From Thermoleophilia bacterium (GTDB taxonomy: Bacteria > Actinomycetota > Thermoleophilia > Gaiellales > SKUG01), in NCBI GenBank assembly GCA_039811765.1, contig JBDHZF010000001.1, positions 457 through 64,456 on the forward strand: a DNA stretch of 64,000 bases, read 5' to 3'. Position 1 is the first letter of the stretch. Every line of letters begins with the position of its first letter. Both the position numbers and the translations under genes were made by a program. Below are positions 3,440 to 49,505 of the stretch, one piece after another. Below the pieces are notes generated by a model. It made no database searches and was not told the origin of the DNA. It saw only the letters and a list, made by a program, of their open reading frames with translations.

Positions 3440-3486
3440 GAGGGGGCGACGCGGCATCGGGCCGCGGCGCCCCCTCGGTGTTTTTT
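3440..3486 (+). terminator. Rho-independent terminator after flagellin 1
   Basis: GAGGGGGCG (3440-3448) pairs with CGCCCCCTC (3468-3476) and is followed by GGTG plus a T6 run (3481-3486). Confidence 0.8.
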
Positions 3487-3514
3487 GCAATCTCGTCATC
3501 GTGCTAGCGCCGCT

Positions 3515-3542
3515 TCAAGGGGCGTTCCAACGTGGTCGATGC
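3515..3542 (+). promoter_or_regulatory. Weaker sigma-28-type promoter of flagellin 2
   Basis: TCAA (3515-3518), 16-nt spacer, GTCGATGC (3535-3542). The spacing is the same as in the flagellin-1 promoter, and the leader shares GTCACGGAGGAC with flagellin 1 (3586-3597 vs 2553-2564). Confidence 0.4.
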
Positions 3543-3603
3543 GCTTGGTGTCGAGTGACAGGAAGTTGCTCGAGCCACGTCCAGCGTCACGGAGGACCAC
3601 GTC

Positions 3604-4446: not shown

Positions 4447-4459
4447 CGCTGACGATCCA

Positions 4460-6223: not shown

Positions 6224-7411
<1,188 letters not shown>

Positions 7412-7414
7412 CGC

Positions 7415-32808: not shown

Positions 32809-33608
32809 CGCATCGACCTCCGCCTGATCACGTCGAGCACGGCCAGCACGATCACGCTGGTGCCGAGCAGCACGCAACTCACCGCGGCGGCGCCAGCCGG
32901 GTCGGCGCTTTCGATCAGTCCGAAGATGTAGACCGACGCGACCTCGGTGTGGAACGGCACGTTGCCGCTGATCAGCACGATCGAGCCGAACTCGCCGATC
33001 GCCTTCGCGAACGAGAGGCCCGTGCCGGTGACGATCGCGGGCACGAGCGCCGGCAGAATGATGCGACGAACGACCGTGCGCGGCTTGGCGCCGAGCGACT
33101 GCGCGGCCTGCTCCACTTCCCGATCGAGTTCCATCAGCACCGGTTGGACGCTGCGAACCACGAACGGAAACGTGACGAAGAGCAGCGCGGCGTAGACGCT
33201 CGCTCGCTGGAAGGCGATGTTCACGTGCACCGGCGAGGACGGGCCGTACAGCGCAAGCAGCGTGAGACCCGCCACGATCGTGGGCAGCGCGAACGGCAGG
33301 TCGATGACCGCGTTGAGCAACCGCTTGCCACGGAATCGATCGCGCACGAGCACCCACGCCACGAGCGTGCCCGTGATCGCGTTCACGAACGCGATCACGA
33401 TCGACGCGAGAAACGTGAACTTGAGGGCCGCGCGCGCCTGCGGATTCGAGAGCGTGCGCACGAACGCGTCGTCGCCGTCCTTCGTCGCGCTCCAGATCAC
33501 CGCGGACAGCGGCAAGATCACGACGAAGCCGAGCACCGCCGCGACGATGCCGATCGACAGCACGTCGCGCCCGCTCGAGCCTCGCCGGATCTTCGCCTCG
33601 TCAGCCAT
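32805..33608 (-). CDS. cysT: Sulfate ABC transporter permease
   Basis: Track ORF of 267 aa. It has the loop MELDREVEQAAQSLGAKP and an 8-nt overlap with the binding-protein gene. Confidence 0.88.
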   Translation of the reverse strand: MADEAKIRRGSSGRDVLSIGIVAAVLGFVVILPLSAVIWSATKDGDDAFVRTLSNPQARAALKFTFLASIVIAFVNAITGTLVAWVLVRDRFRGKRLLNAVIDLPFALPTIVAGLTLLALYGPSSPVHVNIAFQRASVYAALLFVTFPFVVRSVQPVLMELDREVEQAAQSLGAKPRTVVRRIILPALVPAIVTGTGLSFAKAIGEFGSIVLISGNVPFHTEVASVYIFGLIESADPAGAAAVSCVLLGTSVIVLAVLDVIRRRSMR

Positions 33609-34647
33609 CCGTGGAAACGCCGAGCTTCTTCTCGATGTCGGCCACGTACCCCTTGTCTCGGTCGAAGAAGTCGTCCATCACCGCGTCCCAGCCGCCGAGG
33701 TCGTCGATCGTGAACAGGTCTTTCGGCTCCGGGAACGCTACTCCTGCCGCATCCGCGGCTCCGTCCACCACCGGGCGATACCCGTGCTTGGCGAACGTCT
33801 GCTGCGCCTCGTCCGAGTAGAGGAACTTCACCCATGCGTCGACGGCCTCCTTCGCCTTCGTGCCGTCGAGCGTGGCCATCGGGTTCTCGATCAGGATCGT
33901 GGAGTCGGGCACAATGTGCTCGAAGTCGCCACCCTCGGCCTCGGCCTGGATCGCTTCCTGCTCGTAGGCAAGCATCGCGTCGCCCTTGCCAGTGCCGAAC
34001 ACCTGCAACGCCTCGCGAGCGCTCTTGCTCTGCACCGGCGTGTTCTTGAGCAGCTGCTCCATCTTGTCGAGCGCCTCGTCGTGGCTGTCGCCGGCGCGCG
34101 TCCACGCGCCGTACGCCGCCATCAGGTTCCAGCGCGCGCCGCCCGACGTGAACGGGTTCGGCGTCACGACCTCCACGTCGTCGTCGAGCAAGTCGTCCCA
34201 CGTCTTGATGTGCTTCGGGTTGCCCTTGCGCACGACGATGGCAACCGTGCTGTTGGTGAGCATGCCGTCGTGACCACCGACCGTGGTCCAGTCGTCGGAC
34301 ACGAGCTTCGCGTCGACGAGCCGCTGCACGTCGGGCTGGAGCGCGAGGTGGACGAAGTCGGTGGGCAGGCCGCCTTCCACGGCGCGCGACTGCTCGCCTG
34401 ACGAGCCGTAGGACTGGTCGAACTGCACGTCCTTGCCGTCCTTGGTCTTGTTGAACATCGGGATCAGCTCTTCGTAGGCCTCGCGCGGCGTGGAGAACGC
34501 CACGAGCGAAATGCGATCGCCGGCGTTCGGCGCCGACGCGGATTTCTTGGTCGAGTCGCTGTCGGAATCGCAGCCCGTGGCGAACACAGCGGCCATGGCG
34601 ATGGGGACGAGCGCGCGCAGCGCCGTGCGAAGCTTCGAAGTGGCCAT
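33601..34647 (-). CDS. Sulfate/thiosulfate-binding lipoprotein (Sbp/CysP/SubI family)
   Basis: In-frame ATG 34647 (MATSKLRTALRALVPIAMAAVFATGC, lipobox). The conserved motif TSGGARWN is present. Confidence 0.88.
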   Translation of the reverse strand: MATSKLRTALRALVPIAMAAVFATGCDSDSDSTKKSASAPNAGDRISLVAFSTPREAYEELIPMFNKTKDGKDVQFDQSYGSSGEQSRAVEGGLPTDFVHLALQPDVQRLVDAKLVSDDWTTVGGHDGMLTNSTVAIVVRKGNPKHIKTWDDLLDDDVEVVTPNPFTSGGARWNLMAAYGAWTRAGDSHDEALDKMEQLLKNTPVQSKSAREALQVFGTGKGDAMLAYEQEAIQAEAEGGDFEHIVPDSTILIENPMATLDGTKAKEAVDAWVKFLYSDEAQQTFAKHGYRPVVDGAADAAGVAFPEPKDLFTIDDLGGWDAVMDDFFDRDKGYVADIEKKLGVSTDG

Positions 34648-34841
34648 GCTGAATGGTCCTTTCACATATTTCCTACCGAACAGGCCGGGATTATGGAGAA
34701 GCGGGTCGGACGCAGTCAAGTCGACCAAACGAATCTCGATTCAACCGGTTGGATTTCCGGGTCATGCCCATGCGGCCGCCCAGGGCTGGGGAGTCCGGTT
34801 TTGAGCGGGGTCCGGGGCTCGGCTCGCGCCACTATCGAGCG

Positions 34842-34886
34842 AATCCGACGGTTCAGGCGACGGATTCGCCCGATAGCGCTCGCCAC
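34842..34886. promoter_or_regulatory. 16-bp-arm inverted repeat in the cysP/Rrf2 divergent region (operator or leader-hairpin candidate)
   Basis: CTATCGAGCGAATCCG (34842-34857) pairs with the reverse complement of CGGATTCGCCCGATAG (34871-34886) at 15 of 16 positions, with a 13-nt spacer. Confidence 0.35.
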
Positions 34887-34961
34887 GACCTCACGCCAAC
34901 GAGCCACGACCTCAAGGCACGGTTCTCCGTGTGCAGGGCCTCGATCTGCGAGGATCGGCGC

Positions 34962-35423
34962 ATGAGGATCTCCGCCAAAGCCGAATACGCCGTGCGGGCG
35001 GCGCTCGAGCTGGCCGCGGCCGTGGACGACGGCGCACCGATGAAGGCGGAAGCGATCTCGCGCGCGCAGGAGATCCCGGCGAAGTTCCTCGAATCGATCC
35101 TGCTGGATCTGCGCCGCGCGGATCTCGTGCGCAGCCAACGCGGCGCCGTGGGCGGCTATTGGCTCGCGACCGAGCCCGACGAGGTGTCGATCGCGGACGT
35201 GATCCGCGCGGTGGACGGTCCGCTCGCGTACGTGCGCGGCGAGCGACCCGAGCACGTGGAGTACTCCGGCGCGTCCGAACACCTGTCGGGAATCTGGATC
35301 GCGCTGCGCGCCAGCTTGCGCATCGTGCTCGAGGAGACATCGCTTGCCGACGTGCTCGACGGACGGCTTCCCGCCCCGGTGAGCGCGCTGGTCAACGACC
35401 CCGACAGCTGGACTCCGCACTGA
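34962..35423 (+). CDS. Rrf2-family transcriptional regulator without cysteines (CymR-like)
   Basis: In-frame ATG 34962. MRISAKAEYAVRAALELA...IPAKFLESILLDLRRADLVRSQRGAVGGYWLA is a typical Rrf2 wHTH. No Cys residue is present anywhere in the protein. Confidence 0.88.
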   Translation: MRISAKAEYAVRAALELAAAVDDGAPMKAEAISRAQEIPAKFLESILLDLRRADLVRSQRGAVGGYWLATEPDEVSIADVIRAVDGPLAYVRGERPEHVEYSGASEHLSGIWIALRASLRIVLEETSLADVLDGRLPAPVSALVNDPDSWTPH

Positions 35424-36355
35424 TGCGACGGCGTCGCCGACGCGGCCGAGGCATTCCGACCGCCGCGCTCGTCGCCGGCGTGGTCGTCGCCCTCGGCGCT
35501 TCGGCGTGGCTGTTCATTGCGCAAGGCAGCGACGATTCGGACGCGAAGCGCGAGCACAACCAAACTGAAGCGGGCGAGCAGAAGGACCAGGCCGACAGCG
35601 TGCTGGAGCTGCCGAAAGACGACACGCCATCGGGCGATCGCCTGGATCCCGACGCGGTTCGCAACGGTTCGCGGGGCGAGGACGACGACGCGAACGAGGA
35701 CGACGCGGGCGTCGATGCCGACGGCGGCGCGAGTCCGGCCCTGCTGCAGCACCTTCGCGGCACGCGGGTCGCGCTTGCGAACGCCGCCGCGGCTGGCGCG
35801 GGCGACGAGGACAGGATATTGCGCATCGGCGCGACGCGCGTGGCCTGCGCTGCCGCGACCGATCCTGTGCGCGCACGCGCGCAAGAACAGTTGACCGCCG
35901 AACTCGCACGCCAACTCGCCGCCGCCGGCGCGACGGTCACGCGCGCGGACGATCGTCCGTCGTGCGTGGACGCGCGATCGACGAGCTTGGCGAAGGCCGA
36001 GTACGGGATCGTCGTCGGCGACGCGGATGCTCGACGCGTGCTGCCGGCGACCGGCGCGAACGCAAACGCTGCGCCAACGCCAGGCTCGAGGAGCCTCGCG
36101 AACGAGATCGCAGGCTGGCTTGGCCTCGACGGCTCCACGATTGCGGCAACCTCCGCCGCTCGACAACACGTTGCGAGCGTTGCGGCGATCACGACGACGA
36201 ACGCAGCGTCGATTGCGCTCGTCGAGGTCTCGTCCTCCGACTTGCAGGCCACCGCCGCGAAGGAGACGGCCGCGTCGATCGTCGCCGCGATCGCGAGCGC
36301 CGCGACGCACGCTATTGCGCCGCAGCCTCGCCCCACGGATGGTGCGCGACCGTGA
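35423..36355 (+). CDS. Membrane-anchored hypothetical protein (acidic linker plus Ala-rich C-terminal domain)
   Basis: The ATG overlaps the Rrf2 stop (TGATG). MRRRRRRGRGIPTAALVAGVVVALGASAWLF forms a TM anchor, followed by a D/E-rich stretch. The function is unrecognised. Confidence 0.65.
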   Translation: MRRRRRRGRGIPTAALVAGVVVALGASAWLFIAQGSDDSDAKREHNQTEAGEQKDQADSVLELPKDDTPSGDRLDPDAVRNGSRGEDDDANEDDAGVDADGGASPALLQHLRGTRVALANAAAAGAGDEDRILRIGATRVACAAATDPVRARAQEQLTAELARQLAAAGATVTRADDRPSCVDARSTSLAKAEYGIVVGDADARRVLPATGANANAAPTPGSRSLANEIAGWLGLDGSTIAATSAARQHVASVAAITTTNAASIALVEVSSSDLQATAAKETAASIVAAIASAATHAIAPQPRPTDGARP

Positions 36356-37712
36356 CGACCCGCTCACCTTCGGGACCGTCCGGCAGGTAGACCCGAAAGG
36401 ACGCGCCGGTGCCGGCGCGATTGCCGTCGCGGTCGCCTTGGTGACGCTCCTCCACCCAGGCACGTCCACCGTGCAAGCGCGCGAATCGATCCACGAGCGA
36501 CAGCCCGATGCCCGTGCCGGGTTTGTGGCCGCTCGTCAACGCCCCGCGCTCGAACGGCGCGAAGATCGTTCCGCGATATTGAATCGGCACTCCGGGACCC
36601 TCGTCGTCCACGCGCAGCAAGATTCCGTCATCCACTCGTTCCAGATGGATCTCGACCGTGGACGATGCCGGCGAGTACTTGAGCGCGTTGCCCACGAGGT
36701 TGTCGATGACGCGCTCGACCTTCCCCGCGTCGACGATTCCGATCGCATGCTCCTGATCCACGACGAGCGACCGACCGGTTGCTTCGGCGGCTCGATGCGC
36801 GCAGGCGCGCGCGAGTTCGGCGACATCGACGCGCGCACGTTCGATCGACACGCTCCCACGCCCCATCCGCTCGATGTCGAGCAGGTCCTCGAGCAACCGT
36901 TCCAACCGATGCGATTCCTCCACGACGTGATCCAGCATCACGCGCGCCTCAGGCGCGAGTCCGGGCGAGAAGTCGCGAATCGTCACCGAGAAGCCCAAGA
37001 TCGAGGTGAGGGGCGTGCGCAGCTCGTGCGACACCGCGGCGAGGAACGTGGAACGAAGCTCGTCGAGCGATCGAAGCGCCGCGGCGGCCTCTTGCTCCGC
37101 ACGCAGCGCGAGCAACAGCCGCGCGTGTTCGCGACGGGCGCGCTCGGCCATCCACCCGGCGACGCACGCGATCAGGAACCCCACGCCCACGCGGAAGGAG
37201 ATCGAGGTCCAGTAGAACCCGAACTCGAATCGGTCCGAAGCCCACGCGTCTCGAAGCGCGTACGACACGCCGACCACGCCCATCGTGATCAGCGACCCAC
37301 GAATGCCGTATCGATACGCGCCCTCGACCACTGCGACGTACCCGACCACGAAGATCGCCGTGTAGACGTCGAACGAGAAGACCCAAATCAGCGCGATCGC
37401 GAACGCCGTGTCCGCAGCCAACGCGAACGCGCCCACCCAGCCGCGCCCCTCGTACGCCTGCTCGGTGCCTCGCTCGCGCATCCATGCGACCGTGATCACG
37501 ATCGAGCACGCCGTGATCGTTGCGATGACGGTCCATGCCGCGGCGCGATACCCCGCCGGGTACGGCAGGTAGAACGTGGCGACCTGAACGGCGGCGAAGA
37601 CGATCGCGACCCACCGGATCGCGACCATCACCCCTTCCGCGTCCACCCGCTTCACATCGGCACGAAGTTCCACGTTCACATCGTACGTCGCCAAGGCGCA
37701 CGGAGCCAGCAT
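36312..37712 (-). CDS. Sensor histidine kinase with a polytopic membrane N-terminus (no adjacent response regulator)
   Basis: H-box FLAAVSHELRTPLTSILGF, N-box GNALKYSP and G-boxes DDEGPGVP and GTGIGLSLV. There are about six N-terminal TM segments. The exact start is uncertain. Confidence 0.88.
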   Translation of the reverse strand: MLAPCALATYDVNVELRADVKRVDAEGVMVAIRWVAIVFAAVQVATFYLPYPAGYRAAAWTVIATITACSIVITVAWMRERGTEQAYEGRGWVGAFALAADTAFAIALIWVFSFDVYTAIFVVGYVAVVEGAYRYGIRGSLITMGVVGVSYALRDAWASDRFEFGFYWTSISFRVGVGFLIACVAGWMAERARREHARLLLALRAEQEAAAALRSLDELRSTFLAAVSHELRTPLTSILGFSVTIRDFSPGLAPEARVMLDHVVEESHRLERLLEDLLDIERMGRGSVSIERARVDVAELARACAHRAAEATGRSLVVDQEHAIGIVDAGKVERVIDNLVGNALKYSPASSTVEIHLERVDDGILLRVDDEGPGVPIQYRGTIFAPFERGALTSGHKPGTGIGLSLVDRFARLHGGRAWVEERHQGDRDGNRAGTGASFRVYLPDGPEGERVVTVAHHPWGEAAAQ

Positions 37713-37751
37713 TCGAACGAATCCTTTGCAGCATCTCGCAGTCCTTTCGCA

Positions 37752-39464: not shown

Positions 39465-40442
39465 ATGGCGCCCATGCTCACAACACCAGCGACGACGATT
39501 CGACGACACGTCACCGACGAGCAGCTGCACGCTCGCTTGCTGGACGAGGTGCGGACCGGTCTGGTGTCAGAAGCGCCGTGGCTGCCCACGCGACTGCTCT
39601 ACCTCGGGCTGGGCGGGCGCCGCTTCGAGGCTGTCGCCGGCGATCCGCGATACCGACTCGCGCGCCGCGAACAGGCGCTGCTTCGACGGCACGCGCGCAC
39701 GATCATGCAGCTCGCGGATTGCAGCCATGTCCTGGAGCTGGGCGGCGGAGCGTCCGAGAAGCTCGCGACGCTGGTCGCGTCGACCGACGCCCCGCTAACA
39801 GTTACCGCGGTGGACGTGGACGAGCCGGGAGTGGTGCGGGGACTGGACATGCTCGCGACATCGCACTCACACGTACGCGACACCGAAGCGATCATCGGCG
39901 ACATGCTCGACGATTCACACGAGTTGCCGCGACACGGTCGACGCTTGGCGGCGCTGCTCGGCAGCACGCTCGGCAACTTCGACGAGCAAGAGCGAACCGT
40001 GCTCCTGCGTTCGGTCGCCAGCAGCAGCGAGTCGGGCGATGCGCTGCTGCTCGGATTGGACGTGAACGGCCGCGGGTTCGACCAGTTCTTCGCGTACTCG
40101 AGCGACGCGATCTCGAACTTCAATCGCGAAGCGTTCACCACGCTTGGCGCGCTGCTCGCCGAACCGCTGACGCGCGACGACGTCGACCACCGCGTGGAAT
40201 GGAGCGACGTCGAACGCGCGGTGCGCGTGCAGCTCGTGCCGCGACACACGATCGAGCTGACGAATCCGGCCCTCGGCGATTCGATCACGATTCGCGCTGG
40301 CGTGCCGATCACAACCGCCGTCAGCCGCAAGCCACGCCCGGACACGCTGGACCGCGAGCTTGCCGCCGCTGGATTCGACCGCACGACCTGGTGGTTCGAC
40401 GACTCAACGCTGCATGCCGTGGTGCTGGCGCGAAGTGGCTAA
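39465..40442 (+). CDS. EgtD-like SAM-dependent amino-acid N-methyltransferase (Methyltransf_33 family)
   Basis: Motifs present: LELGGGASEKLATLV (SAM motif), LLGSTLGNF, AYSSDAISNFNREAF and the C-terminal TTAVSRKPRPDTLDRELAAAGF..TWWFDD, matching the EgtD layout. Confidence 0.8.
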   Translation: MAPMLTTPATTIRRHVTDEQLHARLLDEVRTGLVSEAPWLPTRLLYLGLGGRRFEAVAGDPRYRLARREQALLRRHARTIMQLADCSHVLELGGGASEKLATLVASTDAPLTVTAVDVDEPGVVRGLDMLATSHSHVRDTEAIIGDMLDDSHELPRHGRRLAALLGSTLGNFDEQERTVLLRSVASSSESGDALLLGLDVNGRGFDQFFAYSSDAISNFNREAFTTLGALLAEPLTRDDVDHRVEWSDVERAVRVQLVPRHTIELTNPALGDSITIRAGVPITTAVSRKPRPDTLDRELAAAGFDRTTWWFDDSTLHAVVLARSG

Positions 40443-41735
40443 GGCGTTCGCCACGATCGCGGCTTGATCGCGCAGCTCCACCACCGCGGTGGTCTCCAGC
40501 AGCTCGCCGCGCCGCAGCGCGCCGATGACGTAGATCGAGGGGGAATCCTCGGCTCTCCGACCAACGGGCGGCGTCAGCCGGCCATCGACGTCCGCGCGCA
40601 CGCCGATTCGCAGCGCGTCCGGTTCGGCGAGGCGGCGTTGGAGCAGCGACCGCACGAAAGGATCGGCGTGGTCGAGGATCGACGTGCCGAACCCGGTGCA
40701 ATTGATCACTCGATCGGCCTCGGCGATCGCGTCCTCGACAGGGCCAGACCAGCGTCGCAACCGCCCGTCCTGTTCGAGCTGGGCGACACGCTGCGCGATC
40801 GCCGGCGCCATGCGATGGCGGATGCACTCCCACGCGCGATCGTAGTGGTCGAAGAACCGCTGCTGTTCGGCTGGAGGGAGCGCGCGCCACAGACTCTGTG
40901 TTCGCGGACGCAGCGCGTCGACCACGTCTCGCCAGTCGAGCCCGACGATCTCGGCGCGCGAGACTGACCGGTCGAAGGCCGCGGCGTAGGCGTCGGCGGT
41001 CGCGTCGACGGTGTCGAACGCGCTCAAGTCCACGTCCGCGGGTCGACCCGGCTCGACGAGGTGCGCGCGTGGCGCCAAGCCAGTGCGAGAGACGGTGAGC
41101 ACCGTCGCGGCGGGATCGACGGTGCAGGTGGTGAGCGCGAGGTCGACTGCGGTGAGTCCCATGCCGATAAGCAGCGTCGTGGCGCCCACGGGAACCGCTG
41201 TCAACGCTTCGGCAGACCACGGATCGTCGATTCCGCGGTCGCCAGCCAGCTCGCGTATCGAATCAGGCAAGCGGGACGGCGCGGGCCCGATCGCAACCAC
41301 GACGTGATCGGCGACGATCGTGGATTCGTCGTCCAGCTGGACCTCCAACCGCTCGGGTCGGCGAATGCCGATCGCGCGCGCGCGACGATGCTCGACGGAT
41401 CGACCGCGTTCGCGCATGCGCTCGATCGCGTCGCTTGCGACATCGGCGAGGTAGTCGCCGTAGCGGGCACGCGGCTGGAACTGCGCGGACGTCGAGTCGA
41501 CACCGTGCTCGCGCAGCCAGCGCACGAATCCATCCGGATCGTTGGCTGATGCGCCCAGCACGCCCGCGCGCACGTTGAGCAGGTGTTGCGGATCAGGCGT
41601 CGAGTACGCGCCGCCCGGGCCGATGCGCGACGCGGGCTCGATCACCGTCACGTCCGCAGCGGTGTCTCGCGCCGCCAGCTCGGCGAGCAGAAACGCGGCG
41701 GCGCACCCACCGCCCACGATCGCGATCTTCGTCAT
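40404..41735 (-). CDS. FAD/NAD(P)-binding flavoprotein (YdhS/NAD_binding_9-like)
   Basis: In-frame ATG 41735, ATGA overlap with the rhodanese stop. MTKIAIVGGGCAAAF, GPGGAYS...HLLNVRAG and a second GxGxxA motif (LLIGMGLTAVD). Confidence 0.8.
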   Translation of the reverse strand: MTKIAIVGGGCAAAFLLAELAARDTAADVTVIEPASRIGPGGAYSTPDPQHLLNVRAGVLGASANDPDGFVRWLREHGVDSTSAQFQPRARYGDYLADVASDAIERMRERGRSVEHRRARAIGIRRPERLEVQLDDESTIVADHVVVAIGPAPSRLPDSIRELAGDRGIDDPWSAEALTAVPVGATTLLIGMGLTAVDLALTTCTVDPAATVLTVSRTGLAPRAHLVEPGRPADVDLSAFDTVDATADAYAAAFDRSVSRAEIVGLDWRDVVDALRPRTQSLWRALPPAEQQRFFDHYDRAWECIRHRMAPAIAQRVAQLEQDGRLRRWSGPVEDAIAEADRVINCTGFGTSILDHADPFVRSLLQRRLAEPDALRIGVRADVDGRLTPPVGRRAEDSPSIYVIGALRRGELLETTAVVELRDQAAIVANALATSRQHHGMQR

Positions 41736-42568
41736 GCCGTCCCCATTTCGATCGGCGCGCCGACCAAGTTGCTCCACTCGATCCACGAGCCATCGTAGTG
41801 TCGCACGTCGTCCAACCCGAGCAGCTCGGAGAGCACGAACCATCCATGCGCCGCGCGCTCGCCGATCCGGCCGTACGTGATCACCGGTTCGCTGCCGGTG
41901 ACGCCCGCTCGCGCGTAGAGCTCGCGCAGCTCGTCCACGGGCCGGAACGCGCCGTCCTCGGTGAGCGTGCAGCGCCACGGCACGTTCACCGCGCCGGGGA
42001 TGCGTCCTGCTCGCGCCGACCCCTCGCCGGGGAATCCGGCAACGTGTGCCACCGATCCTCCGTACTCGGCGGCGCTGCGCACGTCCACGAGCGGGCCGAG
42101 CGCGCGATCGACGAAGCGCGCCACATCCTCGCGATTGGCTCGAATCACAGAATCGTCACGCTCCCTCAGGGCGAACGTTCGCTCGATGCGATTCGGCTCG
42201 GACTCGTCGAGCGGTCGATCCTGCGCGATCCACAGCTCGCGTCCACCATCGAGCAAGCGGAGGTTCGGCGCGCCGAACAGTCGAAGCACCCAAAACGCCC
42301 ATGCGGCACGGCAGTTGTGCGAGTCCCCATAGAGCACGATCGTCGATTCCGAATCGACTCCCATGGAACCGAGCAGCCGCTCCATTCGCGCTCGATCGGG
42401 AAGGTCGCGCACGACAGGATCGGCGAGATCGCGCGCGCTGTCGATGCGATGAGATCCCGGCACATGTCCTTGGTCGTATGCGTCGTGGCGCTCGTCGACT
42501 TCGATCACGACGACGTTCGGGTCGTCGATGTGTCGCTCGAGCCACGATGCGTCGACGACTGGCTTCAT
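41732..42568 (-). CDS. Tandem-rhodanese (thiosulfate sulfurtransferase-like) protein with Gly at the catalytic Cys position
   Basis: Track ORF of 278 aa with a two-rhodanese-domain layout. The active-site loop reads TYGRIGERAAH where the family has YCRIGERS. The Gly codon GGC is at 41870-41872. Confidence 0.85.
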   Translation of the reverse strand: MKPVVDASWLERHIDDPNVVVIEVDERHDAYDQGHVPGSHRIDSARDLADPVVRDLPDRARMERLLGSMGVDSESTIVLYGDSHNCRAAWAFWVLRLFGAPNLRLLDGGRELWIAQDRPLDESEPNRIERTFALRERDDSVIRANREDVARFVDRALGPLVDVRSAAEYGGSVAHVAGFPGEGSARAGRIPGAVNVPWRCTLTEDGAFRPVDELRELYARAGVTGSEPVITYGRIGERAAHGWFVLSELLGLDDVRHYDGSWIEWSNLVGAPIEMGTA

Positions 42569-42571
42569 CGA

Positions 42572-43903
42572 TCAGGCGATCGACGCAGGCACGAGCAACT
42601 CGAATGCCGAGCCTTCGATCGCGCGAGCGTCGATCCCAGCACGACGAAGCGCGCTGGCCACAACGCGAGCGCGGTACCCGGAGACGCACGCGAGGGCGAG
42701 CGGCCCGTCGGGCGCGAGGGACGGATCGCCAAGCAGCAACGAACCGGGGATCGCAACGGCGCCGGGCATCGGCTGTTCGCGCACCTCAGCGGGATTGCGA
42801 ACGTCCACGAGCGTGCGTCGCCCTTCGCGAACGTCGGAGACGAGGTCGCCTTCGGTCGGCGCGCCAACGGCGGGTTCGGTCGCGAGCTCGGACGCCGCGA
42901 CCCATCCGGCGGCGCCTGGCTCGAACACGTCGAGCAGCATCGCATTCGCGTCGTTGGCGCGATCGGCATCGTCGGCGACGAGGATCACGCGCGGCGCGCC
43001 GTGCGCGGCCATGCCGGCCCACACCGTGAACGCCGGACCGGGCGGCAGCTCGATCGCCCCCGCCGCGAGCGGATAGTCGGCGCTCCGGTCGCGCACGTCG
43101 AGCAAGACGTCGTCGTCGCGCAGGTCCCCTGGGGCGAGGCACGGCGCGTCGAATCGCTCCACGGGCGCGACGCCGCGCATGTTCGCTGCGCGCGTGGTGG
43201 GCCAGAACTTTGGAACGGGTGGCAACCCGGCTCTATCGAGCCAGTCCTCGATCCCCAGATCGCGTGCGCGAAGCATCGACGCGATCGCCTGGTTGGCGGA
43301 TCGCTGCTCGCCGATGGTCGTGCTCGTGCCGGGCGCGATCGCTCCGGCGCAGAGCGAGCCCGCGACGTGGGTGGGCAGCACGAGCACGTCGTCGTCCTCA
43401 GCCTCGACGAGATCGAGGATCGTCGAGGCGAGCGCGGTCGCGTGGCGACCGACTCGTTCCGGGCCGCCAAGCAGATCCGGTCGACCCACGTCGCCCACGA
43501 GCAGGCTGCCGCCGCTGAGGATCGCGATCGTCTCGCCGTCGCGCACGCGAACCGCGGTGTGCTCGGGGGTGTGACCGGGCGTGTGCAGCAGCGTGACCTC
43601 GACGGTCGGACCGAGTTCCAGGACGTGGCCGTCGCGGGTTGGAATCGCGTCATAGCCGACGGTCGAGCCGATCGGCGCCAGCGCGGTCGCGCCCAGGGCG
43701 ATCAGCGCGGACAATCCGGAGAGGTAGTCGTTGTGCCCGTGCGTGTCGAGGACCCACGCGATCGTGGAGCGCTGCTTCGCCGCCGCCTCGAGCAGCGTGG
43801 ACACGTCGCGGGGCGGATCGACCACCATGGAAATTCGCGTCTCGGGATCGGTCACGAGGTACGAGGCGTGGCCGAGCTGGGGATTGTGGAACTGCTCGAT
43901 CAT
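42572..43903 (-). CDS. CstB-like persulfide dioxygenase (MBL fold) fused to a pseudo-rhodanese and an active rhodanese domain
   Basis: In-frame ATG 43903 with AAGGAGGA SD. Motifs present: DTHGHNDY, LHTPGHTPEH, a middle rhodanese-like domain without Cys, and the C-terminal loop ACVSGYRA. Confidence 0.85.
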   Translation of the reverse strand: MIEQFHNPQLGHASYLVTDPETRISMVVDPPRDVSTLLEAAAKQRSTIAWVLDTHGHNDYLSGLSALIALGATALAPIGSTVGYDAIPTRDGHVLELGPTVEVTLLHTPGHTPEHTAVRVRDGETIAILSGGSLLVGDVGRPDLLGGPERVGRHATALASTILDLVEAEDDDVLVLPTHVAGSLCAGAIAPGTSTTIGEQRSANQAIASMLRARDLGIEDWLDRAGLPPVPKFWPTTRAANMRGVAPVERFDAPCLAPGDLRDDDVLLDVRDRSADYPLAAGAIELPPGPAFTVWAGMAAHGAPRVILVADDADRANDANAMLLDVFEPGAAGWVAASELATEPAVGAPTEGDLVSDVREGRRTLVDVRNPAEVREQPMPGAVAIPGSLLLGDPSLAPDGPLALACVSGYRARVVASALRRAGIDARAIEGSAFELLVPASIA

Positions 43904-43928
43904 GGCGAAATCCTCCTTGCCTTCTTTT

Positions 43929-43951
43929 CCTACCTGTTTAGTAGGGTATAC
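43929..43951. promoter_or_regulatory. AT-rich pseudo-palindrome plus -10-like TATACT in the divergent cstB-like / cysteine-desulfurase spacer
   Basis: The sequence is CCTACCTGTTTAGTAGGGTATAC. CCTAC/GTAGG arms are present, with TACC...GGTA halves and TATACT at 43947-43952. It is the only AT-rich patch in the 104-bp spacer. Confidence 0.3.
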
Positions 43952-44007
43952 TTTGGGCCGACCCGAGTCAACCCGACTCGCACGACTGCACCAAGGAGGC
44001 AAACGCC

Positions 44008-45183
44008 ATGCGCCGAGCGCGACCGATCTACCTTGATCACCCCGCCACCACGCCGTGCGATCCACGCGTGATCGACGCGATGCTGCCGTGGATGCAACAA
44101 CAGTGCGCGAACGCAGGCCAGTCGGGTCATGCGCCGGGCCGGGCGGCCGCGGCGGCGGTGGAACTCGCCCGCACGAACGTGGCGGCAACGCTCGGATTGC
44201 ACGACAGTGGCGGCGTGCTGTTCACGTCCGGAGCGACCGAGGCGAACAACCTCGCGCTGCTCGGCAGTTCGATCCGACCAGGCGAAGTCGTGGTGATCGG
44301 CGCGACCGAGCATCCCTCCGTGCTCGCGCCTGCGCGCGTGCTCGCCGCGCGCGGCGCGAAGCTGCGCATCGTGGGCGTGGACCACGACGGGCGCCTACGA
44401 CTCGACGAACTCGAATCCGCGCTCGAAGGCGGCGCGGCGCTCGTGTCGGTGCAGGCTGTGAACAACGAGACCGGCGTGATCCAACCCGTCGCGGCGATCG
44501 GCGCCGCCGCACACGCCGTGGGTGCGGCGTTTCACGTGGACGCGGTGCAAGCGTTCGGCAAGGTGCCGCTCGACGTGCACGGCCATGGCATCGATCTCGT
44601 GACGATCTCCGGCCACAAGGTCGGCGGCCCGCAAGGCATCGGCGCGCTCGCCGCTCGCGAACCCGCGCGCGTTCGCGAGCTCGCGCCGCTGCAGCACGGT
44701 GGCGGTCAGCAGCTCGGCATTCGCCCCGGAACCCTGAACGTGCCGGCGATCGTCGGGCTCGGCCATGCCGCAGGCGTGCTGCGAACGAGCGGCCGCGACG
44801 AAGCCGAGCGCATGCGCAGCCTGCGCGATCGACTCGAGCGCGCGATCGCGGGACGGCTCACCGGCGTCACCGTCAACGGTGGAGGCGTGCGACGATCACC
44901 GTCGATCTCGAGCATCACCGTCGACGGGATCGTCGCACGCGACCTGCTCGAGGACCTCGGCGCGGTCGCCGCGTCCACCGGAAGCGCGTGCAGCGGCGGC
45001 GCGCCGTCCCACGTGCTGCGCGCAATGGGTCGCACCGACGCGCAGGTGGCAGGCTCGATGCGCCTCGGCATCGGACGCACGACCACGATCGACGAGATCG
45101 ACGCGGCCGCGGAGCTGCTCGTGGACGCGGTCGCCTCCGCACGCGGGCGCCGCCGAACGCGACGACTCGTCATCACCGCCTGA
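44008..45183 (+). CDS. Cysteine desulfurase (NifS/IscS class V aminotransferase)
   Basis: AAGGAGG SD. PLP-lysine motif SGHKVGGPQG and catalytic-Cys loop STGSACSGGAPSHVL. Confidence 0.9.
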   Translation: MRRARPIYLDHPATTPCDPRVIDAMLPWMQQQCANAGQSGHAPGRAAAAAVELARTNVAATLGLHDSGGVLFTSGATEANNLALLGSSIRPGEVVVIGATEHPSVLAPARVLAARGAKLRIVGVDHDGRLRLDELESALEGGAALVSVQAVNNETGVIQPVAAIGAAAHAVGAAFHVDAVQAFGKVPLDVHGHGIDLVTISGHKVGGPQGIGALAAREPARVRELAPLQHGGGQQLGIRPGTLNVPAIVGLGHAAGVLRTSGRDEAERMRSLRDRLERAIAGRLTGVTVNGGGVRRSPSISSITVDGIVARDLLEDLGAVAASTGSACSGGAPSHVLRAMGRTDAQVAGSMRLGIGRTTTIDEIDAAAELLVDAVASARGRRRTRRLVITA

Positions 45184-45284: not shown

Positions 45285-47018
45285 CTACGCTGACTCGAGC
45301 GCGAGGTGCGGACGCAGGCGATGCATCGTGTCGGCGATCACCGCTTCGTCGAATGGATCGCCGAGGCCTGCGTCCGTGACCATCTGGCGGAACGACTTCG
45401 TGCCGCCGGTGTCGCACAGCTGCAGGTATGTGTCGATCGCGGCCTGTTCGTCCTCGAGCGAGCGCAGCCACAGCTGCCAGCTCACGATGCGCGCGAGCGC
45501 GTAGTCGAGGTAGTAGAACGGATACTGGAACACGTGCAGCTGCAGCAGCCAGCGGTTGCCGGCATACCACTCGTCCACGTCCCAATCGATCGCAGGCTGG
45601 AAGCGGCGCGCCGCGGCCTCCCATGCGGCAGCTCGGCCAGCTGCGTCGAGATCGCCGTCGTAGATGCGGTGTTGCAGCTCGTCGATCGCGGCCATGTACG
45701 GCACGACGTCCAGCGTGGAGCGCAGGTGTTCCACGCGGAAGTGCTCGAGTTCGTCGCCGAAGAACGGCGCGAGGTACGGCATGGCGAGCAGCTCCAGCGA
45801 CATCGAATGGATCTCGCACGCCTCCATCGTGGGGTGCTGCAGGTCCGGCGGTTCGATGTCGCGGCTGCGCCAGCCTTGGAGCGCATGACCATACTCGTGC
45901 ACGAGCGTCTTCACATCGTCGTGCGCGCCCACCGAATTGCAGAAGATGAAGGGGACACGTTCCCAGCCGAAGCCGCCGCAGAACGCGCCGGTGCCCTTTC
46001 CGGGGCGCGCGGGCAAGTCGACGAGTCCCTCGTCCACGAGCATGCGCCACGGCGCGCCGAACGCCTCGCCCATCGCGTCGAACGTTTCGCTGGCGGCGTC
46101 GAGCTCGCCGTCGATCGACACGTGCAAGTGGGGCGGCGGTTCGGGCATGATCGCCACGTCCGCGGGGTGCAGGCGATCCGTGCCGAGCGCGGCGGCTTGC
46201 ACGAGTTGCAGCTCGGTGGCGATCGGCACGACGTGCTGCTGGATCGCGTGCCGCACATGGGCCGCGTCCTCGGGCGTCCAATCGAAGCGGCGCATTTCGA
46301 GGTAGCGCAGGTCCACGTACGACGGCTGGTCCAGATTCTTCGCCATCTGGCCGCGCAGCTCGCGCGCCTCGTCGAAGATCGCCTGCAGCTCGCGCTCGTG
46401 CTCGCGCACGTAGTCCATGCGCGAGCGCCACGCGGCATGCCGTTCGTCGCGATCGGGGTCGAGCGCGGCCTTCGCGCCGAAGCTGAGTGGGTGGGTCTCG
46501 CCGCGCCACGTGAACGTGCCCTTGCCGAAGATGCGCGTGTGGCGCATCAGCACCCCGCTCAGCTCGGTGCGCAGCGCGGTGTTCACGGGCGCGTGCGCGC
46601 GGCATGCGCCCTCGAGCTGACGCAGGTACAGTGTGCCGAATCGGTCGGTGAGCGCGTCGGCGACAGGGGCCGCGACGATCGCGCGCGCGACTTCCATCGA
46701 GGCGTCGGTGATCGTGGGCGACACTTGTCGCGTCCAACGCTCGTACGCCTCGGTGACGGCGGCGTCATCGGTCTGTTGGCGATACGCGATCGCCACGCGC
46801 GAGCCGTGCGTGTCGATCAGCGCTTCGAGTTCGCTGGTGCGCAGCACCACGTCGATCCACGCATCGGGGCTCTCGCCGGCTTCGCCGCACGCGGCGAGGA
46901 TCTCGTCGTAGCGAGCGCGAATCCAATCGGCGTCGAGCTGCTCGGGCAGGTCCGAGGGCAGCCAATTGGGCGTGCGGGCGAGGTGCGAGAGATCCGGGAG
47001 GTACTTCGTCGTCGTCAT
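45285..47018 (-). CDS. M3-family oligoendopeptidase (PepF-like)
   Basis: In-frame ATG 47018 (MTTTKYLPDLSH...). Zinc motif TLVHEYGHALQ. About 577 aa. Confidence 0.85.
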   Translation of the reverse strand: MTTTKYLPDLSHLARTPNWLPSDLPEQLDADWIRARYDEILAACGEAGESPDAWIDVVLRTSELEALIDTHGSRVAIAYRQQTDDAAVTEAYERWTRQVSPTITDASMEVARAIVAAPVADALTDRFGTLYLRQLEGACRAHAPVNTALRTELSGVLMRHTRIFGKGTFTWRGETHPLSFGAKAALDPDRDERHAAWRSRMDYVREHERELQAIFDEARELRGQMAKNLDQPSYVDLRYLEMRRFDWTPEDAAHVRHAIQQHVVPIATELQLVQAAALGTDRLHPADVAIMPEPPPHLHVSIDGELDAASETFDAMGEAFGAPWRMLVDEGLVDLPARPGKGTGAFCGGFGWERVPFIFCNSVGAHDDVKTLVHEYGHALQGWRSRDIEPPDLQHPTMEACEIHSMSLELLAMPYLAPFFGDELEHFRVEHLRSTLDVVPYMAAIDELQHRIYDGDLDAAGRAAAWEAAARRFQPAIDWDVDEWYAGNRWLLQLHVFQYPFYYLDYALARIVSWQLWLRSLEDEQAAIDTYLQLCDTGGTKSFRQMVTDAGLGDPFDEAVIADTMHRLRPHLALESA

Positions 47019-47065
47019 GCCTCGGGCGATGCCCGTTCGACGCGCTGGCGAATCCCGTCGCGCGG

Positions 47066-47695
47066 TCAGGCGCGGTCTGGGTCGATCGCGGCGATCGTGT
47101 TGTCGATCAGCTCCTGGCGCCCATGCTCGATGGCTCGCTGCAACACGCCGTGCTCGTCCACCTTGTACTGCCCGACACGCTCCAGCCTGGGCGAGTACGC
47201 ATGAATGGTGACGGCTGGCGTGCCGCTGCCATGCGCCACGGAGTGGATGTAACCCGCAGGACCCTGGCGGCTCACGCCGGGAGTCATCTCGATCGTGGTG
47301 GCGCCGGACGGCAGCAGCATCTGCCGCTCGATCACGCTGCCCTGCGCCGAGCACAGTCCCACGCCGGAAACGTCATGGTCATGGAACCCTGTGTGCTGGC
47401 CCGGCATCCAGCTGAGCACCCACACGTCGATGCGGTCGTCTTCGTACAGCAGTCGATAGCGTCGACGCTCCTCGTCCACCACCACGAGCGGGCCGAACAA
47501 CGACTCGTCCTGCGCGATCGTGCGCACGAGCGATTCGAGCTCGTCGCAGTCGAGCACGCCGGTGTGTGGCATCAGCGAGGCGCAACGCGCGGCGAGCTCT
47601 GCCGGCGGCGCGGTGACTTCGTTCCACTGCTGCGGCGTGATCTCGTTGTTGCCAGTGGACGACGGCGAGCTGGTAGGCGGGTTCATCGAATCCAT
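47066..47695 (-). CDS. Cysteine dioxygenase type I family cupin (CDO/3-mercaptopropionate dioxygenase-like)
   Basis: Motifs present: WMPGQHTGFHDHD..SGVGLCSAQGSVIE and ..IHSVAHG..., plus TIHAYSPRL. Confidence 0.8.
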   Translation of the reverse strand: MDSMNPPTSSPSSTGNNEITPQQWNEVTAPPAELAARCASLMPHTGVLDCDELESLVRTIAQDESLFGPLVVVDEERRRYRLLYEDDRIDVWVLSWMPGQHTGFHDHDVSGVGLCSAQGSVIERQMLLPSGATTIEMTPGVSRQGPAGYIHSVAHGSGTPAVTIHAYSPRLERVGQYKVDEHGVLQRAIEHGRQELIDNTIAAIDPDRA

Positions 47696-47734
47696 TGTAG
47701 CTGCGCGCGCCCAATGCGCCGCGAACCAGTCCGA

Positions 47735-48217
47735 TCAACGCGTGACGACGTTGCGCCAGGGAATCGGCGAACCGAGGATCATCGACGTCGTCGTCTTGCC
47801 GAACTGATTGAGCGACGTGGTGAGGCGATCGAGCTCGGCCATGCTGCCAACCTGCACGCGCAGCAGCACTGTCTCCTCGCCCGTGAGCGTGTGGCACTCC
47901 ACGACTTCGCCGCGATCCTGCGCGAACGCGACGAGCCGTTCGACCCGCTGCGGCGTGGGCGTGGCGACCCGCACGAACGCGCCGATGCCGCGTCCAACGC
48001 GCTCTGGGTCGATCCACGCGCCGTAGCCGGTGATCACGCCGGCGCGCTCCATGCGGCGCACGCGCTCGCGGGCCGCAGGCGCGGTCAGGGACACGCGCCG
48101 GCCGAGCTGCGCCCACGTGATGCGAGCGTCGCGTTCGATCTCGCGAATGATCGCGCGATCGGTGGGATCGAGGTTGATCGGGGCGGGAACCAAGGAAGGC
48201 ACGGCGGTCATGGGCAT
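47735..48217 (-). CDS. Lrp/AsnC-family transcriptional regulator
   Basis: In-frame ATG 48217. LDPTDRAIIREIERDARITWAQLGRRVSLTAPAARERVRRMERAGVI forms the HTH, followed by a C-terminal RAM-like domain. Confidence 0.88.
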   Translation of the reverse strand: MPMTAVPSLVPAPINLDPTDRAIIREIERDARITWAQLGRRVSLTAPAARERVRRMERAGVITGYGAWIDPERVGRGIGAFVRVATPTPQRVERLVAFAQDRGEVVECHTLTGEETVLLRVQVGSMAELDRLTTSLNQFGKTTTSMILGSPIPWRNVVTR

Positions 48218-48238
48218 ACGGTAGCGGAGAATCGTGAA

Positions 48239-48252
48239 AATTTCGCGAAATT
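48239..48252. promoter_or_regulatory. Perfect 14-bp AT-rich palindrome in the Lrp/EamA divergent spacer (operator candidate)
   Basis: AATTTCGCGAAATT lies 22 nt upstream of the Lrp start codon. Confidence 0.4.
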
Positions 48253-48395
48253 GGGGTTTGCTGGCCGGATGATGTATGACAAATGGCCCATGATGCGTTG
48301 ATTCATGCGCGGTTCTTTCGAATCGGAAGCGGGATCGGCCGAACACTTTCGATCGCCCATTGGGGTGGTGGCGACCGTCGCCTACCGTGTCAGGC

Positions 48396-49505
48396 ATGCA
48401 CGGAAAAACTACTTCAACCTCACTCATGGTCGCCTGCTTGCTCGTCACATGGCTGGTCTGGGGATCGTCGTTCGCGGCGATCTCGTGGACACTCGAAGCG
48501 CTGCCGCCGCTGCTCTTGATGGCGACTCGATTCATGGTTGCTGGCGCGATCGCGACGATCGTGGGCGCTCGACTCACGCGCCGTTCAGGCGGCCCTCGCC
48601 CAACACGGCGCGAGTGGCGTGACGCGTCCATCGTCGGCACGGGATTCGTGGCGATCGGCATGGGCGCCACGAGCTGGGCGGCGTCGCACCTGTCGTCGAG
48701 CATCACCGCGCTGCTGGTGGCCACCGCCCCGGTATGGCTCGTGACGTTCCAGTGCTTCGGGCCTCGCCGCAGGCCGTTGAACGCCGTCGTGTTGGCTGGC
48801 CTGCTCGCGGGCATTGGCGGCATGGCGCTGCTGGTCGCGCCTGGTGCAGGCGAGGCGATCGACCTTCGCGCTGCAATCGTGCTCGTGGCGGCGAATGGCG
48901 TGTGGGCAGCGACGTCGCTGTTCGCCCGATCGGCGACGCGACCGTCGTCGCTCGTTCAGGGCGTGGGCATGCAAATGCTCGCGGGTGGCACGCTGCTCGC
49001 TATCGCATCCGCGGCATGCGGGGAATTCGGAGCGGTGCGCTGGTCCAAGCTCGGCGCGCTCGCAACCTGCAGCTGGGTATACCTCGTGCTCGCGGCGTCG
49101 TTGGGCGGGTTCCTCGCCTACGGCTGGCTGCTCGAGCACGCGTCGACGACGATCGCGTCCACGTTCGCGTTCGTCAATCCGCTCGTCGCGGTCGGCATCG
49201 GCGCGGCAGCGCTTGGGGAGACGATCGATCAACGGGTGTTGACGGCGACCGCGGCGATCGTCGCGGCCGTCGTGCTCATGATGGTCGGAGAAGCGCGAGT
49301 CGCAGCACCCGTGCGGCGCGATCGAATCGGGATGGCGAGCGCGGCACGGCCCGTGGCGCTGGCAGGTCGCGGCGGCCGCAAGCTCGGATGGTCGCCTGCG
49401 CCCACGCCGTCGTTCGCCGCTCGACGCGAGCCTCGCCCCCTGCGCGCGACCGACGGCATGGACGCGCTCGCGATCGATCGCGCGCTCGAACGCTTCGAGG
49501 CCTGA
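48396..49505 (+). CDS. EamA/DMT-family transporter
   Basis: In-frame ATG 48396. It has ten hydrophobic segments and begins LLVTWLVWGSSFAAISWTLEALPPLLLMATRF. Confidence 0.85.
   Translation: MHGKTTSTSLMVACLLVTWLVWGSSFAAISWTLEALPPLLLMATRFMVAGAIATIVGARLTRRSGGPRPTRREWRDASIVGTGFVAIGMGATSWAASHLSSSITALLVATAPVWLVTFQCFGPRRRPLNAVVLAGLLAGIGGMALLVAPGAGEAIDLRAAIVLVAANGVWAATSLFARSATRPSSLVQGVGMQMLAGGTLLAIASAACGEFGAVRWSKLGALATCSWVYLVLAASLGGFLAYGWLLEHASTTIASTFAFVNPLVAVGIGAAALGETIDQRVLTATAAIVAAVVLMMVGEARVAAPVRRDRIGMASAARPVALAGRGGRKLGWSPAPTPSFAARREPRPLRATDGMDALAIDRALERFEA

Follow-up and report, generated by a model that had tools for sequence, protein, structure and literature searches.

Gene organization of the locus

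We analyzed a 64,000-nt stretch of Thermoleophilia DNA (the window; GC content ~68%) that carries three closely linked minus-strand genes, here called A, B and C, and a divergently oriented cysteine desulfurase gene, E. The original prediction for this locus was an operon built around a persulfide dioxygenase (PDO) resembling CstB of Staphylococcus aureus, in which a YdhS-type flavoprotein stands where a sulfide:quinone oxidoreductase (SQR) would be expected. The genes concerned, and the region from which A and E diverge, are as follows.

Gene A, 42572-43903, minus strand: fusion of a metallo-β-lactamase (MBL)-fold, PDO-like domain with a pseudo-rhodanese and a rhodanese, 443 aa
Gene B, 41732-42568, minus strand: tandem rhodanese, 278 aa
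Gene C, 40404-41735, minus strand: NAD_binding_9 (YdhS-type) flavoprotein, 443 aa
A/E divergent promoter region, 43904-44007, no strand: 104 bp between A and the cysteine desulfurase gene E
Gene E, 44008-45183, plus strand: group-I (IscS/NifS-type) cysteine desulfurase, 391 aa, divergent from A

The linkage of the three minus-strand genes was exactly as first described, with the same coordinates, a 3-nt gap between the stop codon of A and the start codon of B (TGA-TCG-ATG), and an ATGA overlap of the C start codon with the B stop codon. The sequence AAGGAGGA lies directly 5' of the gene A ATG. A, B and C are predicted to form a translationally coupled operon. All real genes between 36 and 49.5 kb could be assigned, and no SQR was found among them or among twenty of the larger open reading frames (ORFs) that were annotated elsewhere in the window. 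Searches by phmmer with a CsoR-like protein and with TauE gave no CsoR/CstR or TauE match in any window ORF, in agreement with the earlier statement that no CstR-type regulator is adjacent. There was no Rfam match at 39.0-49.6 kb, and no tRNAs were found.

The flavoprotein resembles class B monooxygenases

The product of gene C matches the Pfam family NAD_binding_9 (1.4e-32) and contains the GPGGAYS...HLLN string. In a set of 5.8 billion proteins, none was closer to it than 48% identity, and phmmer found no match to it among PDB sequences, so that profile and fold searches were needed. When a model of C built from 82 homologues (pLDDT 95.4) was compared with the PDB by Foldseek, the best match was the aspartate N-hydroxylase FzmM (8cp2; E 5.5e-20, query TM-score 0.76). 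It was followed by the ornithine and lysine N-hydroxylases PvdA, KtzI, SidA and DesB (E ~1e-14) and then by bacterial flavin-containing monooxygenases (FMOs; 4usr/4c5o); all of the best 50 structures were class B monooxygenases. The family profile of C likewise matched FzmM at 1e-17. Neither SQR nor flavocytochrome c sulfide dehydrogenase (FCSD) appeared within the first 50 structural or the first 60 profile matches, and the placement of C with YdhS rather than with SQR is thus upheld.

Individual residues point the same way. Both dinucleotide-binding motifs, G8xG10 (GGGCAAA) and G191xG193 (GMGLTA), are invariant in the family, as is S216-R217 after the following strand, which is consistent with NADPH binding. 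N54 of the HLLN string is also invariant and aligns in the profile alignment with the Asn of the FzmM sequence LLMN (Asn62), a residue that sits over the flavin C4a (PMC10404684). The helical domain wedged into FzmM carries a cluster of Arg residues at which sulfate or carboxylate is held next to the flavin (PMC10404684), and the helical segment of C (residues 239-322) has an invariant R276 and an invariant R306-H307-R308. The only Cys that is at least 90% conserved among the 82 aligned sequences is C346, in an NCTG motif; a redox-active Cys pair, which is a feature of SQR, was not found in this alignment. By every feature tested, C is predicted to be a class B, NADPH/O2-type monooxygenase, and a soluble one. 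It probably acts on an anionic substrate, and the invariant Arg/His cluster would favor an oxyanion over HS- in this role.

C therefore shares with FzmM, CreE and other class B enzymes (PvdA, SidA, KtzI, the FMOs) the two dinucleotide domains with a helical domain wedged between them, the Asn over C4a, the basic cluster of the helical domain, and the Ser-Arg pair after the second Rossmann strand. However, it is only ~16% identical to FzmM and 160 residues shorter. FzmM and CreE work with a nitrosuccinate lyase partner (FzmL/CreD-type), whereas the genomic partners of C are sulfur enzymes. Like SQR and FCSD, C is an FAD protein of the two-dinucleotide-binding-domain superfamily and is encoded next to a PDO, but it lacks their redox-active Cys pair or trisulfide and has a second, NADPH-type nucleotide site. 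A membrane or quinone interface was not noticed in C, although no search aimed at one was made. The suggestion that C occupies the place of SQR consequently fails with regard to mechanism, given its class B fold and residues, the missing Cys pair and its predicted solubility.

At E<=1e-30 the flavoprotein family comprises 1998 clusters (about 2000, clustered at 50% identity) and is thus a large one. Two further fusions within it are a 658-aa protein with an N-terminal Flavin_Reduct domain (P0486) and an 853-aa protein with a C-terminal extension of ~420 residues that has no Pfam match (P0483).

Gene A encodes a PDO-rhodanese fusion of an Asp-less clade

The product of gene A has Pfam matches to Lactamase_B (residues 11-179) and, C-terminally, to Rhodanese (residues 358-432), separated by a pseudo-rhodanese domain without Cys (VADDAD). 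Its full length can be aligned with both of the solved MBL-rhodanese fusions, 3tp9 (8e-39) and CstB of S. aureus, 3r2u (5e-25), and it has the same three-domain plan and size as CstB and the type III PDO-rhodanese fusions (3r2u, 3tp9 and BpPRF, 5ve3). To this extent the description of A as a CstB-like PDO was correct, but the metal site departs from it. In CstB the Fe(II) triad is H56, H119 and D145, the Cys of the Cys201-Gly202 loop undergoes self-S-sulfonation, and the rhodanese Cys is Cys408 (PMC12934615, 2026 preprint). A retains the equivalents of both His ligands (H55, within H55-G-H57-N58-D59-Y60, and H111), of the loop Cys (C185, in PTHVAGSLCAG) and of the rhodanese Cys (C406, in CVSGYRA). 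The position of the Asp ligand is occupied by G132 (codon 43508-43510) in alignments with CstB, 3tp9 and ETHE1-type PDOs: A reads SGGSLLVGD where CstB reads SGDFIFVGD, and the HxHADF motif is replaced by HGHNDY. Of the 2-His-1-Asp facial triad, A has the His pair but not the Asp.

This replacement is not peculiar to A. HxHNDY, SGG (Gly for Asp) and PTHVAGSLC, including C185, occur in 120 of the 120 best homologues of A; the residue after C185, an Ala in A, is Gly in 101 of these. In the MBL sequences that we collected, the two states of the site co-vary perfectly. HxHADx is found with [ST]GD in CstB, 3tp9, L064, L016, L045, L007 and L073, and HxHNDY with [ST]GG in the 120 homologues of A, L087, L093, L097, L110, two Streptomonospora paralogues and the fusion protein P0476. 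A second fusion protein, P0389, is probably of the HxHNDY/[ST]GG type (HVHNDY was confirmed, and its [ST]GG loop was not picked up by the pattern). We rejected decay of A as an explanation for G132, since all 120 homologues have this Gly and its presence goes together with that of HxHNDY. The HxHNDY/[ST]GG proteins appear to constitute a large, mostly actinobacterial clade of MBL-rhodanese fusions without the Asp metal ligand, and their motifs suggest a re-built metal site, either with three His ligands or with participation of the Asn or Tyr. A itself could still function as a sulfur dioxygenase, with its metal bound in an altered site that may consist of His55/His57/His111.

The two Streptomonospora paralogues offer a link to a characterized system. 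In Streptomonospora salina (JACHLY010000001, 3077-11104; L169), genes for a CsoR-like repressor, two Asp-less MBL-rhodaneses (3547-4941 and 7001-8395), two single rhodaneses and TauE lie together in one operon-like series, the gene content of the ScCsoR-ScPDO circuit of S. coelicolor. The ScPDO of that circuit has been assayed and consumes O2 with glutathione persulfide (PMC7533328). A belongs to the same Asp-less clade as both S. salina proteins, but the window lacks the CsoR-type repressor and the TauE exporter of the actinobacterial circuit and has the flavoprotein, a Cys-less tandem rhodanese and the desulfurase instead. It differs similarly from the cst operon: there is no CstR, SQR or TauE/CstA near A, whose partners are the desulfurase and the monooxygenase-type flavoprotein. 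The S. salina gene run is directly followed by a CbiM/PDGLE/CbiQ/ABC cobalt-nickel energy-coupling factor (ECF) transporter, a position that hints at a possible role for some metal besides iron in the Asp-less enzymes.

Gene B encodes a tandem rhodanese without the catalytic Cys

Gene B had been described as a tandem rhodanese, and its product does contain two Rhodanese domains (4e-31). It matches 1uar at 6e-79 over residues 4-276, as well as the M. tuberculosis CysA-type 3aax and 3hwi, and is by these alignments a very close relative of the thiosulfate sulfurtransferases. It has the length, the tandem fold and the CRIGERS loop context of these SseA/CysA-type enzymes. However, its active-site loop reads YGRIGERA, with Gly233 (codon GGC, 41870-41872) at the position of the catalytic Cys of 1uar, 3aax and 3hwi, whereas 118 of the 120 best homologues of B have the Cys (YCRIGERS). 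The original description did not extend to this residue; neither did it mention Gly132 of A, the conserved flanking desulfurase or the EgtD-like methyltransferase discussed below.

Two orthologues were informative. P0243, which is 57% identical to B, also has Gly at this position (YGRTRERS), and its C-terminus corresponds exactly to the partial gene before the flavoprotein gene in contig L086. P0242, which is 65% identical, keeps the Cys and sits between a gene ending in a rhodanese domain and an NAD_binding_9 gene. Because the Gly recurs in the P0243/L086 orthologue, the loss of the Cys is real and arose, or was kept, within the A-B-C operon lineage. Decay of B was rejected, as the ORF is intact in three lineages. 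With its catalytic Cys absent, B is predicted to be unable to carry a persulfide, which would leave it only the binding or handing over of sulfur oxyanions.

The gene arrangement recurs, and the flavoprotein family is linked to sulfur dioxygenases

Genes in A-B-C, B-C or A-C order, overlapping or abutting, were found in four other contigs (41-65% protein identity), and this recurrence argues that A-B-C is no chance juxtaposition. In a Thermoleophilia metagenome-assembled genome (MAG; L002), a cysteine desulfurase gene diverges from an MBL-rhodanese gene (48% identity), which is followed by a flavoprotein gene (41%). L168 has the same three genes, and L167 has the divergent desulfurase and MBL-rhodanese pair. 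The P0242 contig contains a gene with a rhodanese ending followed by B and C, with overlaps, and L086 contains B and C with a convergent methyltransferase gene; its flavoprotein, 48% identical to C, is the closest homologue. In L002, the gene behind the flavoprotein gene encodes a 307-aa protein that is no methyltransferase. The E product itself carries the SACS Cys loop of IscS/NifS-type enzymes, and with the divergent pairing recurring in L002, L167 and L168, an IscS-type cysteine desulfurase is a conserved divergent partner of A. When metagenomes were searched with the four closest flavoproteins, nothing above 40% identity came back and hence no additional copy of the exact operon; the search provided a second unbiased sample of the family.

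We also sampled the flavoprotein family as a whole at 160 loci, picked by family-wide motifs from GTDB genomes and JGI metagenomes. An MBL/PDO gene was adjacent to, or fused with, the flavoprotein gene at 9 of these loci (7/87 among those with at least 2 kb of flank on both sides), and the MBL-linked members were enriched among the nearest relatives of C (ranks 0, 2, 3 and 5 of 158). This family-wide evidence is independent of any relatedness between the window and L002. L093 and L097 have the order DsrE2-flavoprotein-MBL-rhodanese, with a gene of the cupin thiol dioxygenase family CDO_I alongside in L097.

Fusions were found with two kinds of sulfur dioxygenase. The flavoprotein, an MBL domain (HxHNDY-type) and a rhodanese form a single chain in P0389 and P0476 (966 and 936 aa), and the flavoprotein is fused to an ETHE1-type PDO (HIHADH, TGDALF) in Tolypothrix PCC 7101 (L007) and Nostoc (L073). 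At least five further proteins (P0094, L010, P0413, P0472 and P0479) join a CDO_I domain to the flavoprotein. PDO and CDO fusions were found independently in cyanobacteria, in Myxococcota and in a Caenarcanales MAG, as well as in two further proteins. The C family is recurrently coupled, physically and genomically, to sulfur dioxygenases. In a census of immediate neighbors, for which genes were chosen by a weighting on third- minus second-position GC content (GC3-GC2) with clipping and whose counts are noisy, the sulfur theme comprised rhodanese (10), Rrf2 (6) and PALP (5), as well as DsrE, CDO, adenosine phosphosulfate (APS) kinase and sulfotransferase.

Two further loci of the family are described here for their surroundings. 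In a Sandaracinaceae contig (JAHBWG010000023, 4197-11641; L004), a CDO_I-flavoprotein fusion lies by a gene for an SrpI-like family-2A encapsulin with a long cysteine-desulfurase cargo, and TauD, pieces of a YeeE/YedE-type sulfur transporter and a peroxiredoxin are encoded nearby. In Nocardioides sp. MAH-18 (WSEK01000004, 7001-12800; L003), a homologue that is 38% identical to C and is named 'FAD-dependent urate hydroxylase' in UniRef is encoded directly before the genes of a xanthine-dehydrogenase/CO-dehydrogenase-like enzyme with three subunits. Clearly, not all members of the family are concerned with sulfur.

A proposed route for the oxidation of cysteine-derived sulfur

The current scheme for the detoxification of reactive sulfur species in bacteria runs from SQR to PDO, which may or may not be accompanied by a rhodanese, and on to export. 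In the window and its relatives, by contrast, the flavoprotein that recurs beside sulfur dioxygenases is predicted to have the architecture of an oxygenase and not of a quinone reductase. We consider it somewhat better than an even chance (roughly 55%) that A, B, C and E represent a conserved cytoplasmic module that oxidizes cysteine-derived sulfane sulfur and includes a flavin-dependent S-oxygenation step. That a sulfur pathway with a flavoenzyme step operates here, as had been predicted, is strongly backed by genome comparison, through the recurrent adjacency and the natural PDO and CDO fusions.

In such a module, the desulfurase E would draw sulfur from L-cysteine as a persulfide, which would be passed to the Cys loop and the rhodanese Cys of A. 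The metal centre of A, probably His55/His57/His111, would then dioxygenate the persulfide to a species at the level of a sulfinate or S-sulfonate, to be released as sulfite or thiosulfate. C would form a C4a-hydroperoxyflavin from NADPH and O2, and this would add one oxygen to a small anionic sulfur compound bound at the Arg/His cluster. Sulfur would thus probably enter from cysteine by way of the conserved divergent desulfurase, and not as free sulfide through a quinone-linked step.

As to the reaction of C, we tentatively prefer S(IV) to S(VI), that is, the conversion of sulfite, an organic sulfinate or a thiosulfinate to sulfate or a sulfonate, while regarding this choice as doubtful. It is preferred because only this step would follow on from PDO and CDO alike, because FzmM binds sulfate at the equivalent basic site, and because a mammalian FMO oxidizes hypotaurine to taurine. 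A broader proposal is similarly speculative: the YdhS/NAD_binding_9 flavoproteins that are partnered with PDO or CDO may represent a new kind of class B monooxygenase that oxygenates sulfur. In concert with a cysteine desulfurase dedicated to the purpose and with Asp-less (possibly 3-His) PDO-rhodanese fusions, they might bring the sulfur of cysteine or persulfides to full oxidation by a soluble pathway that is driven by NADPH and O2 and needs no quinone. The pathway would include a flavin-dependent 'sulfite/sulfinate monooxygenase' step not previously described in bacteria. In the literature on YdhS, PF13454, PDO-flavin fusions and CDO-flavin monooxygenase clusters, we found no description of this partnership.

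If C does oxygenate sulfur, a missing enzymatic step would be added to sulfur oxidation, part of the 'YdhS' family would gain a function, and the disposal of sulfite or sulfinate in organisms without a molybdenum sulfite oxidase might be explained. Attention would also be drawn to the large actinobacterial PDO clade in which the canonical Asp metal ligand is replaced. The hypothesis lends itself to direct testing, given the natural fusions and a named cyanobacterial strain that carries one (Tolypothrix tenuis PCC 7101).

Several observations weigh against the proposed module. FzmM, the closest relative of C with a solved structure, oxygenates nitrogen and not sulfur. PDO iron sites are defined by an Asp ligand that A does not have, and the assayed ScPDO may not share this Asp-less state. 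The contribution of B is uncertain, as only one of three orthologues has kept the Cys. The window and L002 are relatives that have further genes in common (for an uncharacterized protein, an Rrf2 regulator and a histidine kinase, the last at E 3e-154); some of their synteny is inherited, and relatedness rather than selection may account for part of the conservation around the operon. Most members of the flavoprotein family lie in unrelated contexts, such as beside M20 peptidases, malate:quinone oxidoreductase or the xanthine-dehydrogenase-like cluster of Nocardioides; with a family so large and its contexts mostly unrelated, conclusions drawn at the level of the family may not transfer to C. 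Finally, the choice of S(IV) to S(VI) is a guess from chemical logic.

Alternative explanations

C could instead act upstream of A as an analogue of SQR. By oxygenating a thiol or sulfide, with a sulfenic species that condenses with a thiol as one conceivable product, it would supply persulfide to A by a quinone-independent NADPH/O2 route. Soft sulfur nucleophiles are among the substrates of class B FMOs, C stands where sqr does in sqr-pdo operons, and the flavoprotein-then-PDO order of the fusions (L007, P0389 and P0476) fits two consecutive steps; the lack of an SQR among the annotated window genes would also be accounted for. We nevertheless regard this role as unlikely. It leaves unexplained the CDO fusions, in which the flavoprotein comes after the dioxygenase, and it would provide a persulfide that the desulfurase already supplies. 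Spending NADPH on sulfide oxidation would be wasteful compared with SQR, and the invariant Arg/His cluster suggests an oxyanion as substrate rather than HS-.

A second possibility, which we judge improbable, is that C is a redox partner: an NAD(P)H-dependent reductase that keeps the metal of the dioxygenase reduced, or that reduces persulfides or polysulfides. Such a function would explain why the family is paired with sulfur dioxygenases of two kinds, MBL-PDO and the cupin CDO, which both use non-heme iron but are unrelated to each other, and the family profile does match FSP1/AIF, rubredoxin reductases and putidaredoxin reductases as well. However, the structural matches to oxygenases are far better (FzmM at a query TM-score of 0.76, the N-hydroxylases at E ~1e-14), the class B Asn over C4a is invariant, and there is no redox-active Cys pair, with C346 of the NCTG motif the only conserved Cys. 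The Flavin_Reduct fusion P0486 might be taken to favor a reductase, but a fused flavin reductase is more typical of an oxygenase that needs electrons.

It is also conceivable, at a very low probability, that there is no functional link at all, and that C is an enzyme of the N-hydroxylase or urate-hydroxylase type that merely lies beside sulfur genes in one lineage in which A and B are decaying. The identity of the closest solved relative (an aspartate N-hydroxylase), the homologue named 'FAD-dependent urate hydroxylase' in the xanthine-dehydrogenase-like cluster, the absence of one canonical catalytic residue from each of A and B, and the syntenic relationship of the window and L002 are all compatible with such a view. 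It is contradicted by the independent PDO and CDO fusions of cyanobacteria, Myxococcota, the Caenarcanales MAG and the two further proteins, by the invariance of the Asp-less motif in 120 homologues and its co-variation with HxHNDY, by the intact B ORF in three lineages, and by the conservation of the overlapping start and stop codons. The least probable of the explanations considered involves the neighboring methyltransferase and is taken up with that gene below.

Promoter region and flanking genes

The region between A and E contains TATACCCTACTAAA at 43937-43950 on the minus strand, 3' of TTGACT, and the combination TTGAC...TATACCCTACTRAA is kept in the A/E intergenic region here and at the corresponding place in L002 and L168. 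The motif occurs only once in the window, where 0.01 occurrences are expected by chance, and it overlaps the inverted repeat CCTAC-N7-GTAGG. A scan for the sigma-70 consensus found no promoter. TATACCCTACTRAA holds a TACCC half-site reminiscent of CsoR/RicR operators; there is no CsoR gene in the window.

Three further genes may be associated with the operon.

Gene D (possible member), 39465-40442, plus strand: EgtD-like Methyltransf_33 methyltransferase, 325 aa
Gene G (loosely linked), 47066-47695, minus strand: CDO_I-type cupin thiol dioxygenase homologue, 209 aa
Rrf2-family protein (weak candidate regulator), 34968-35423, plus strand: an orthologue lies near the flavoprotein in L002

Gene D is convergent with C and overlaps its 3' end by 39 nt, and the same convergent overlap, of 68 nt, occurs in L086 (methyltransferase at 1572-2120, minus strand). 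D scores 136.1 bits against the NCBIfam model for EgtD (TIGR03438), below its cut-off of 290.9. It has Val and Ala at the only two positions at which wild-type EgtD (4pim; Met and Glu) and 4pip differ, and in these columns it is identical to 4pip, its best PDB match. We take the two positions to be the histidine-specificity determinants M252/E282; the double change, as Vit et al. reportedly found in 2015, moves EgtD from histidine towards tryptophan. From the sub-cut-off score and the Val/Ala positions, D may produce the betaine of an amino acid other than histidine. The last explanation, that the locus makes a sulfur-containing amino-acid betaine resembling ergothioneine, with D trimethylating an amino acid and E, A, B and C installing or modifying sulfur, draws on the convergent overlap of D with C in the window and in L086 (flavoprotein 48% identical), on the resemblance of a desulfurase with rhodaneses to the EanA/EanB route, and on the match of EanB structures to B at 1e-14, but we dismiss it as highly improbable, because D falls below the EgtD cut-off without the distinguishing Met and Glu, lies on the opposite strand and is absent from L002 and from all 160 sampled flavoprotein-family loci, because B without its Cys cannot act like EanB, and because there is no EgtB-like gene at 36-49.5 kb.

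Gene G lies 5.3 kb from C; elsewhere, CDO_I is fused to or adjoins the C flavoprotein family. In the window, it forms part of a row of genes beyond E (45285-49505) for an M3 oligopeptidase, the CDO_I cupin, an Lrp/AsnC regulator and an EamA-type exporter. EamA is linked to cysteine in E. coli, and the region from E to EamA, together with the operon, looks like a neighborhood for cysteine catabolism or detoxification.

On the other side of the operon, a block at 33604-37751 encodes an SBP_bac_11 solute-binding protein, the Rrf2 regulator, an uncharacterized protein and a histidine kinase, and it is syntenic with L002. The block with SBP_bac_11, Rrf2 and the kinase directly flanks the operon in L002, whereas isocitrate dehydrogenase and the methyltransferase are inserted between them in the window. 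The Rrf2 orthologue is one gene from the flavoprotein in L002, and Rrf2 genes are recurrent upstream of the flavoprotein family.

Farther away, two tandem flagellin genes lie at 2467-4443 (plus strand), in a high-GC genome most closely related to MAGs of Thermoleophilia/Solirubrobacterales. The product of a 4030-codon ORF at 18585-30677 (plus strand) is a giant protein, presumably a surface adhesin, in which PA14 and GLEYA domains are combined with many bacterial Ig-like and fn3 domains.

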